NCBI GenBank assembly: GCA_964491895.1
Contig: CAZBHK010000001.1
Coordinates: 91,280-155,279, forward strand
DNA length: 64,000 nucleotides
From: an uncultured Pseudomonadota bacterium
GTDB lineage: Bacteria; Babelota; Babeliae; Babelales; UBA12411
Reading direction: 5' to 3'
The notes beneath the pieces are model-generated. The model worked only from the letters and a program-made list of their open reading frames with translations. It ran no database searches and was not told the origin of the DNA. Shown piece after piece: positions 43,024 to 44,336 of this stretch (position 1 is its first letter; the number at the start of each line of letters is the position of its first letter). A program made the translations under genes and the position numbers.

Positions 43024-43731
43024 ATGAAAAATAATTTATTAGCATCTATAAATATGGCAGCGATCTTCCTTCCTGCACTTATATTAATATTAACCTTTAG
43101 GGGATTTTTTAGGGCTTTTGTAGCTAAAGTTATGGGTGATGATACTGCATATAATGATGGATTTTTATCACTAAACCCTGTGGCGCATATAGATCTTTTT
43201 GGTTTATTATTAATAGTCTTTGTTCTTTTTGTTATAGGTGGTCTTGTGCCAGGAGGTTTTTCTCAAACGTTACTTTTACTAGTACTTATTTTCATGGGAG
43301 TTAGATGGAGCTATGATGTTCCTGTTAATGAAAATAACTTTAAAAATGTTAGATTAAGTATGATATTTGTATCATTGGCTGGGTTTTTGGGTAATTGTTT
43401 TTTGGCTTTTTTACTCTTATATGTTAGAAAATATTTTCCATTTGGTAGTTTGCCTATACATGCTGTAGATCCTATAGATGCAATATTGGTAACAACTATA
43501 GATTTATCATTATTTTTTGGAGTATTTAATTTAATTCCTATCTATCCATTTGATGGGGCAGTTTTATTGTCATATTTACTTCCTACATCTGTTTATAATA
43601 CACTTCAAATGCTGCAAGATTATGCCATATATATTTTATTGATATTATTTCTTTTTGGAGATGTGTTTTTTAGGGGAATTGGATTTATAGCTTTTATAAT
43701 AAAGCTATTCCTTATACATTTAGTGTTTTAA
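43024..43731 (+). CDS. Site-2 protease (M50) homologue lacking HExxH (pseudo-protease)
   Basis: Aligns with the next gene (GDDTA, LSLNP..HID, FNLIP..PFDG) but has RGFFR in place of HEFSH. Confidence 0.85.
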   Translation: MKNNLLASINMAAIFLPALILILTFRGFFRAFVAKVMGDDTAYNDGFLSLNPVAHIDLFGLLLIVFVLFVIGGLVPGGFSQTLLLLVLIFMGVRWSYDVPVNENNFKNVRLSMIFVSLAGFLGNCFLAFLLLYVRKYFPFGSLPIHAVDPIDAILVTTIDLSLFFGVFNLIPIYPFDGAVLLSYLLPTSVYNTLQMLQDYAIYILLILFLFGDVFFRGIGFIAFIIKLFLIHLVF

Positions 43732-44336
43732 TGAATTATTCAATATTTTGGATACAAGGACTGATTCTTTTACCATCCTTTTTAATAGCGCTAACCTTTC
43801 ATGAGTTTTCTCATGCATGGATGGCTAGTTTTTTGGGAGATGATACTGCAAAGAGGATGGGAAGATTATCGCTTAATCCATTAGTACATATTGATCCATT
43901 TGGTTTATTGTTTTTACTTATTTTTAGAATAGGTTGGGCACGACCAGTAATCTTTAATCCTAACAATTTTAGGTACCCAAGAATTTATTCAATATTAACA
44001 GGTCTTGCTGGTCCGTTTTCTAATTTTATTTTAGCTGTTATCTTTCTTAATATTTATAAATATACATTAAGTTTAAAGCTTATTAGTGCAATGGTTAATG
44101 CAACTATATATGTTAATGTTATGTTGGGTGTTTTTAATTTATTGCCATTACCGCCACTTGATGGAAGTCATGTGCTATACGCTCTTATACCAGAGAGTTA
44201 TAAATATATTTATTTTATGTTTTCTCGTTATTATTTATTTATATTGATATTATTATTTATGAATCCTAATGTAATTGCCTTATTTTTAAGGTCGATAATA
44301 GTAGTAAGAGCATTTTTAGAAAATTTTGTAGTTTGA
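43731..44336 (+). CDS. Site-2 protease family M50 zinc metalloprotease
   Basis: HEFSH, LAGPFSN, NLLPLPPLDG. Confidence 0.93.
   Translation: MNYSIFWIQGLILLPSFLIALTFHEFSHAWMASFLGDDTAKRMGRLSLNPLVHIDPFGLLFLLIFRIGWARPVIFNPNNFRYPRIYSILTGLAGPFSNFILAVIFLNIYKYTLSLKLISAMVNATIYVNVMLGVFNLLPLPPLDGSHVLYALIPESYKYIYFMFSRYYLFILILLFMNPNVIALFLRSIIVVRAFLENFVV

Follow-up and report, generated by a model that had tools for sequence, protein, structure and literature searches.

What does a membrane protease gene do once it has lost its catalytic residues, when an intact copy of it lies directly downstream? This question was raised by two overlapping genes on the forward strand of the DNA analysed here, a stretch of 64,000 nucleotides (the window) from contig CAZBHK010000001.1 of the uncultured bacterial assembly GCA_964491895.1. 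The source genome measures 864 kb in 9 contigs and is 97.6% complete; by the database names of its nearest homologues it falls in Candidatus Babeliales / Dependentiae. The upstream gene, open reading frame (ORF) A (43024-43731), encodes 235 amino acids and is a catalytically dead paralogue of the short M50 or site-2 proteases (S2Ps). The downstream gene, ORF B (43731-44336), encodes an active-type short domain-less S2P of 201 amino acids; this class we take to be Kinch groups II/IV, covered by Pfam family PF02163. The two genes share one base in a TAATG stop/start overlap (43729-43733), in which TAA occupies 43729-43731 and ATG 43731-43733. We consider it likely that ORF A belongs to an ancient, non-catalytic membrane protein lineage that derives from an S2P, extends across the Dependentiae and has a non-cutting job of its own. 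Dependentiae are protist-dwelling, obligate intracellular bacteria with very small genomes.

Catalytic motifs and predicted fold of ORF A

We compared ORF A with ORF B by BLASTP and found 35% identity over 209 columns. Because the E value was 2e-29, their paralogy is far beyond chance. ORF B has an intact HExxH site, HEFSH (43800-43814), and an intact NxxPxxxxDG motif, NLLPLPPLDG (44136-44165); these and the motifs of ORF A are all on the forward strand. In ORF A the HExxH site, located in the first transmembrane helix, reads RGFFR (residues 26-30, 43099-43113), so that both histidines are replaced by arginine and the glutamate by glycine. The NxxPxxxxDG motif is kept as NLIPIYPFDG (residues 169-178, 43528-43557), including the third zinc ligand, Asp177. 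ORF A also carries GDDTA (residues 38-42) and LSLNPVAHID (residues 48-57). The loop GDDTAYNDGFLSLNPVAHID (43135-43194) is common to active and dead copies, and the GRL of active enzymes is GFL here. A hydrophobic insert of 35 residues follows (43195-43299), opposite which the BLASTP alignment has a 22-residue gap in ORF B. The first-pass annotation had described two M50 paralogues with a 1-nucleotide overlap and an intact upstream frame whose catalytic residues are replaced. Our ORF check and the BLASTP comparison bore this out, and every motif listed there was found where it had been placed, RGFFR included.

Furthermore, ORF B scored 48.3 bits against PF02163, above the gathering cut-off of 27.2 bits, and ORF A scored 24.9 bits, below it. 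The NCBIfam scan of ORF A returned no family match.

An initial search of 41 related genomes recovered the gene order tetratricopeptide repeat (TPR)-membrane gene, dead M50, active M50, tyrS (encoding tyrosyl-tRNA synthetase) in several families, and some loci with a dead copy alone or an active copy alone beside tyrS. In 20 further genomes from other families, the single short-M50-like gene lacked HExxH in 19 cases, which revealed a second dead type (type II). The form represented by ORF A is called type I. Residues were counted in an alignment of 32 type I and 22 type II copies. Both dead types have lost H24, E25 and H28 of the active HExxH, plus R45 of the GRL loop. Specifically, the first histidine position is Arg in 27 of 32 type I copies and Ser, Ala or Thr in type II, and the position of the catalytic Glu is Gly in 31 of 32 and 20 of 22 copies, respectively. 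The second histidine position in type I is Lys in 14, Gln in 10 and Arg in 4 copies (n = 32), with Glu also among the K/Q/R/E found outside the subclade of the window. R45 is invariant in 109 active proteins from many phyla; it is Phe in 31 of 32 type I copies, and Phe or another aromatic residue across the dead types.

Residues G36, D37, T39, G44, N49, P50 and H53, which form the GDxT...G-x-L-x-L-N-P-x-x-H-x-D loop, were retained in all groups. The P139/P142/D144 stretch is kept in type I (Asp in 25 of 32), and the NxxPxxxxDG motif with its PxPPxDG stretch is deleted in all 22 type II copies. The hairpin insert after HID is specific to type I; type II copies carry a different, mid-protein insert that type I copies lack. 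Type I copies also show conserved charges, namely R26 (27/32), R94 (27/32; Gly in active copies), D169 (20/32; Asn in active copies), D177 (25/32) and R or K180 (23/32; His in active copies), and a salt bridge between R26 and D177 is possible. The Pfam scan of type II relatives gave zero family matches.

The first-pass annotation had also suggested that the two arginines of RGFFR fill the metal site. This idea survives for the subclade of the window, to which Arg at both positions 26 and 30 is mainly confined. It does not extend to type II, with Ser, Ala or Thr at the first position, nor to the K/Q/R variation at the second, and a replacement of zinc by two arginines was rejected as a feature of the family.

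Judged from its sequence, ORF A is catalytically disabled on all the criteria used for S2Ps. Because HExxH is missing and the Pfam score lies below the cut-off, we would not class it as a protease. Public annotation of these proteins as 'site-2 protease family protein' or 'Zn-dependent protease' is misleading for about 230 species.

AlphaFold2 (AF2) models were obtained for ORF A (predicted local distance difference test, pLDDT, 90.9; predicted template-modelling score, pTM, 0.87) and ORF B (pLDDT 95.1, pTM 0.90), and the order of helices is identical in both. Where ORF B has a short helix of 10 residues (56-65), the insert of ORF A folds into a helical hairpin (helices 58-74 and 78-92), where confidence in the model is lowest (block-mean pLDDT about 70-83). 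The ORF B model matched mjS2P (3b4r) and SpoIVFB (8vjl) in Foldseek with probability 1.00. By its HExxH and NxxPxxxxDG motifs, ORF B is a regular member of the short domain-less S2Ps (mjS2P 3B4R, SpoIVFB 8VJL, RseP 7W6X-Z). ORF A is clearly homologous to ORF B and shares its helix order, but differs from these enzymes in the missing HExxH and GRL Arg, the 35-residue hairpin and the Pfam score below the cut-off. Alignments and models together suggest that ORF A retains the S2P transmembrane core while the catalytic residues are gone. Since the domain-less S2P groups have not been extensively characterised (PMC10202637), ORF B, too, is without a known substrate.

Distribution, origin and selection of the dead copy

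We searched 261 Dependentiae genomes, all classed as one order, with profiles and cross-tabulated the results by hand. A dead copy of either type was found in about 231 genomes (about 88%). Type I accounts for 52 genomes at E <= 1e-59, plus 3 divergent copies in family f16, and type II for about 176 genomes (191 matches minus 15 weak cross-matches to active copies). The active short M50 was found in 61 genomes (23%) and is absent from 200, so that about 191 genomes have a dead copy without any active short M50. The RseP-like long M50 is present in 238 genomes, and the source genome also encodes one, just upstream of the window. This distribution result is solid. A few nearly complete genomes, including G041-G046 (family f3, g34), G059, G029 and G152, keep RseP and have no short M50; thus the dead copy is dispensable in some lineages.

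Type I and active copies occur together in 37 genomes and adjoin each other in every pair fetched, in the order dead then active, with gaps of -1 to 62 nucleotides. Type I copies stand alone in 15-18 genomes (f16, f18, f11 g76 and g81, f6 g9), where the dead gene abuts tyrS. Type II and active copies co-occur in 13 genomes and are unlinked where checked (G033, G040, G053, G072-G074), and a further 11 genomes have an active copy only. The first-pass annotation had suggested a survey of relatives for the conserved pair. The tandem was confirmed in about 37 genomes, and the active copy is absent from 200 of the 261.

The steadiest neighbour of the dead gene in the sampled loci is tyrS and not the active M50. 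In the window, tyrS (44347-45525, forward strand) begins 10 nucleotides downstream of ORF B. Among the relatives, tyrS follows closely on the dead copy, or on the dead-active pair, in nearly all type I loci and in 17 or more of the 22 type II loci sampled. The gap between dead M50 and tyrS is usually 0-36 nucleotides, in most sampled loci and for both dead types. No genome among the 261 had both a strong type I and a strong type II match. Because both types lie upstream of tyrS, the dead gene looks like one orthologous slot across the phylum. The pairing of a membrane pseudoenzyme gene with an aminoacyl-tRNA synthetase gene is stable but unexplained.

We also searched 1.84 billion representative proteins with the type II profile and found 303 clusters (50% identity) at E <= 1e-30. 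Both HExxH and PxxPxDG were missing from all of the best 150 environmental representatives (150/150).

A maximum likelihood tree of 97 sequences was built by quick search under LG+C20, with SH-aLRT (Shimodaira-Hasegawa-like approximate likelihood ratio test) support in percent and a star for values of 95 or more. The type II clade received 99* and the type I clade 86. A branch with support 91 separates them from all active copies, whether from Dependentiae or from other phyla. When the root is placed among the other phyla, the dead copies stay together as one group, and no more than 1 state change is forced by the starred branches. With their moderate support, these data favour but do not prove a history in which the gene was duplicated and one copy inactivated a single time, early on, after which the active copy was lost repeatedly.

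To describe selection, we calculated the ratio of nonsynonymous to synonymous substitution rates (dN/dS) by the Nei-Gojobori method for pairs of closely related genomes. Within these pairs, dN/dS ranged from 0.027 to 0.18 for the dead copy, from 0.036 to 0.23 for the active copy and from 0.021 to 0.16 for tyrS. Between the window and its nearest relative, G003, dN/dS was 0.18 for the dead and 0.23 for the active copy, with dS near saturation; amino-acid identity was 64% and 59%, respectively. Without an active copy in the genome, the dead copy still had low dN/dS values of 0.046 (f18), 0.084 (f11 g76) and 0.095 (type II, f12). We looked for relaxed constraint on the dead copy after loss of the active partner and did not see it in dN/dS; branch lengths were mixed, and the dead-copy branches of g76 and g9, two lineages without an active copy, are not elongated in the tree. 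These results show that the dead copy is a selectively maintained pseudoprotease under purifying selection. A strain-specific, neutrally evolving copy, which the first-pass annotation had named as the outcome that would speak against its proposal, is the opposite of what we found. Because the dead copy persists, equally constrained, without an active paralogue, its core function, as far as these comparisons indicate, cannot depend on the neighbouring ORF B.

Possible roles of the dead copy

Tree and synteny suggest that a short domain-less S2P gene was duplicated before the sampled Dependentiae radiated. The upstream duplicate would then have lost the HExxH zinc and catalytic site, with Glu changed to Gly almost everywhere, and the GRL Arg. 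Since then, purifying selection has maintained the dead copy, mostly as part of an operon that includes tyrS, and the active downstream copy has survived in only about a quarter of the genomes, that of the window included. Since the S2P transmembrane core and the GDxT...LNP-x-x-H-x-D loop are kept, ORF A can probably still take up a transmembrane or signal-peptide-like client, without being able to hydrolyse it. By analogy with iRhoms and plant EGY3, it may act as a non-cutting binder, that is, a holdase, gate or adaptor. Where the active paralogue coexists, ORF A may also deliver substrates to the enzyme or withhold them.

Several observations weigh against this account. The ORF A model gave no significant Foldseek match in the PDB, with RasP and RseP appearing only at E > 1, so the S2P fold of ORF A rests on homology to ORF B and on matching secondary structure. 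Because the ORF B model does match 3b4r and 8vjl, this failure was put down to sequence divergence and the insert and not to a different fold. In the tree, the branches uniting type I (86) and the active copies (91) are unstarred and come from a quick search. The charges in the membrane core of type I copies (R26, R94, D or N169, D177, R or K180) could mean a transport-like function. Finally, the tight tandem in about 37 genomes and a natural fusion in genome G135 are what would be expected of a physical partnership, and a partner role may carry more weight in the lineage of the window than our account allows.

The first-pass annotation had proposed just such a partnership, with ORF A as an adaptor, an inhibitor or a heterodimer partner of its active neighbour ORF B; taken strictly, this would be the main function of ORF A. 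The dead-then-active order on the same strand recurs in four families (f1, f6, f11, f14). In G135, a degenerate M50 (HRRAH, PFPTGSDG) is fused to an active copy, a Rosetta-stone hint that short M50 proteins can pair. Furthermore, the dead copies found beside an active copy are all type I, which keep NxxPxxxxDG, and it is type II that lose the motif. However, about 191 genomes, including the 15-18 type I lineages abutting tyrS, have a dead copy without an active short M50, and the partner-less type I lineages show low dN/dS (0.046 and 0.084), with branches of g76 and g9 that are not elongated. The 13 genomes with type II and active copies that are unlinked where checked and the 11 with an active copy alone also fit poorly with obligate pairing. 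As the general function of the family, partnership is not supported, since the dead copy persists under the same constraint where the active copy is absent; as the main role of ORF A we regard it as unlikely. Co-occurrence weakens the strict partner model, which could nevertheless apply to type I lineages. More doubtful again is a neofunctionalised ORF A whose charged former protease cavity works as a channel or transporter, or which serves as a membrane-protein biogenesis factor without capturing substrates for proteolysis. Polar or charged residues do lie at or near the former active site in type I (R26, K/Q/R30, R94, D169, D177, R/K180), type I copies gained the helical hairpin, and the dead gene persists in reduced genomes of 0.8-2 Mb in an operon with a housekeeping gene. 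The type II majority, however, occupies the same orthologous slot without the hairpin and without most of these charges, and for this reason a function common to both types cannot rest on the type I charges. Neither Foldseek nor Pfam returned anything resembling a known transporter.

Two further explanations would deny ORF A a non-catalytic role of its own. It might still be a protease with another catalytic arrangement, since it keeps Asp177, Asn124, His55 and Asp39/Asp57. We consider this very improbable: these residues are just as conserved in the active enzymes and so do not make up for what was lost, Gly takes the place of the general-base Glu, only one of the three zinc ligands is left (none in type II), and the dead copies have no new conserved acid, Ser or Cys. 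To the idea of a decaying or neutrally evolving duplicate, a pseudogene in waiting, we give practically no credence. All three HExxH residues are lost, the score falls under the Pfam cut-off, and the dead family is more divergent than the active one (mean column identity 47% vs 61%), but about 231 species with AT-rich genomes retain an open frame of 215-290 codons. Among the matches listed, only two of roughly 230 dead-copy frames contain an in-frame stop (G109, G119). Residues invariant throughout the phylum and dN/dS of 0.03-0.18 refute this reading.

Taken together, the evidence leaves a selectively kept, non-cutting S2P derivative as the preferred reading of ORF A. Comparable cases have been described in eukaryotes. 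EGY3, an Arabidopsis chloroplast S2P homologue without HExxH, is classed as a pseudoprotease and reported to stabilise membrane or chloroplast proteins (PMC10978774). It resembles ORF A as a dead S2P kept for a non-catalytic role alongside active paralogues, a likeness of concept and function and not a comparison of sequences. EGY3 differs, however, in being eukaryotic, located in plastids, of the larger EGY type and not in tandem with an active copy. iRhoms and Derlins, conserved proteins with intramembrane protease folds, have lost catalytic residues and acquired inserts, and they bind clients but do not cut them (PMC3149277). In contrast to ORF A, they have an unrelated fold of the serine rhomboid class, are eukaryotic and have known roles in endoplasmic reticulum quality control and trafficking. 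The first-pass annotation knew of no equivalent for bacterial M50. To say that no S2P pseudoprotease at all is known would be too strong in view of EGY3, but for bacteria the statement holds as far as our literature search goes: only EGY3 and iRhom surfaced, and we found no description of a bacterial S2P pseudoprotease or of Dependentiae S2Ps.

We lean towards describing the family as a phylum-wide bacterial 'iS2P', in which the S2P fold was converted once, early, to a non-proteolytic membrane protein that is kept in about 88% of the genomes, vs 23% for the active parent, in an operon with tyrS. Its role would be, for example, client holding, gating or transport-like. As a family of bacterial intramembrane pseudoproteases it would be the first, and it comes in two structural forms. 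A dead S2P that is kept phylum-wide in very small genomes, and more often than its active parent, points to an important non-catalytic use of the S2P fold. iRhoms, Derlins and EGY3 are established regulators in eukaryotes, and a bacterial counterpart was not found in the searchable literature. The family offers natural comparisons between lineages with and without an active partner and between two dead forms, and it includes a gene-conversion 'revertant' and a natural fusion. All proteins of the dead and active short M50 family are small enough for heterologous expression.

Neighbouring genes and unusual copies in relatives

Because of the 1-nucleotide overlap and the 10-nucleotide gap that follows ORF B, we presume that ORF A, ORF B and tyrS form a single transcript, with ORF B translationally coupled to ORF A. 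A promoter-like sequence, TTGACC-17-TAAAAT (42963-42991, forward strand), lies upstream of ORF A in the divergent intergenic region of 191 nucleotides. It is a consensus match only, and the consensus scan found no more promoter-like sites than expected from shuffled sequence. The same type of scan found no terminator-like site at either gene junction, its sole match being a weak one inside ORF B (43932-43945).

On the other side of this intergenic region, divergent from ORF A, a gene at 40418-42832 (reverse strand) encodes a polytopic membrane protein of 804 amino acids with C-terminal TPR repeats. Its polytopic N-terminal membrane domain carries a conserved YPFQFDD(L/I)AN motif. Pfam recognised only the TPR part and gave the membrane domain no family assignment. 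This gene is a syntenic neighbour in many relatives: in many type I loci and in some of type II it precedes the dead M50 in divergent orientation. Beyond tyrS, an ORF for a hydrophobic protein of 112 amino acids (45518-45856, reverse strand) overlaps the end of tyrS by 8 nucleotides on the opposite strand, and had no Pfam match.

Some relatives carry unusual copies. In G169 contig 7, both tandem copies contain HEFSH and NLLPIPPLDG. The upstream copy (L073:1544-2224) is chimeric. Over the first 166 residues it shares 64-70% identity with active copies (70% with its own neighbour), and over the last 60 it shares 48-53% with type I dead copies but only 23-35% with active copies. Gene conversion from the active copy appears to have re-activated the dead copy and removed its insert.

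In f11 g75, three M50 copies lie in a row: a type I dead copy is followed by an ORF of 434 amino acids (G135, L047:2226-3530). The N-terminal half of this ORF is a second degenerate M50, with HRRAH for HExxH and ILPFPTGSDG, and its C-terminal half is an active copy with HECSH and NMLPIPPLDG, making it a natural dead-active fusion. In G136 (L046), two separate ORFs cover the corresponding region. The fragment of the divergent TPR-membrane gene shows no difference between G135 and G136 over 432 codons (dN = dS = 0), and the dead M50 adjoining it shows a dS of 0.40. This contrast could reflect recombination, a chimeric assembly or a single contig that both bins share.

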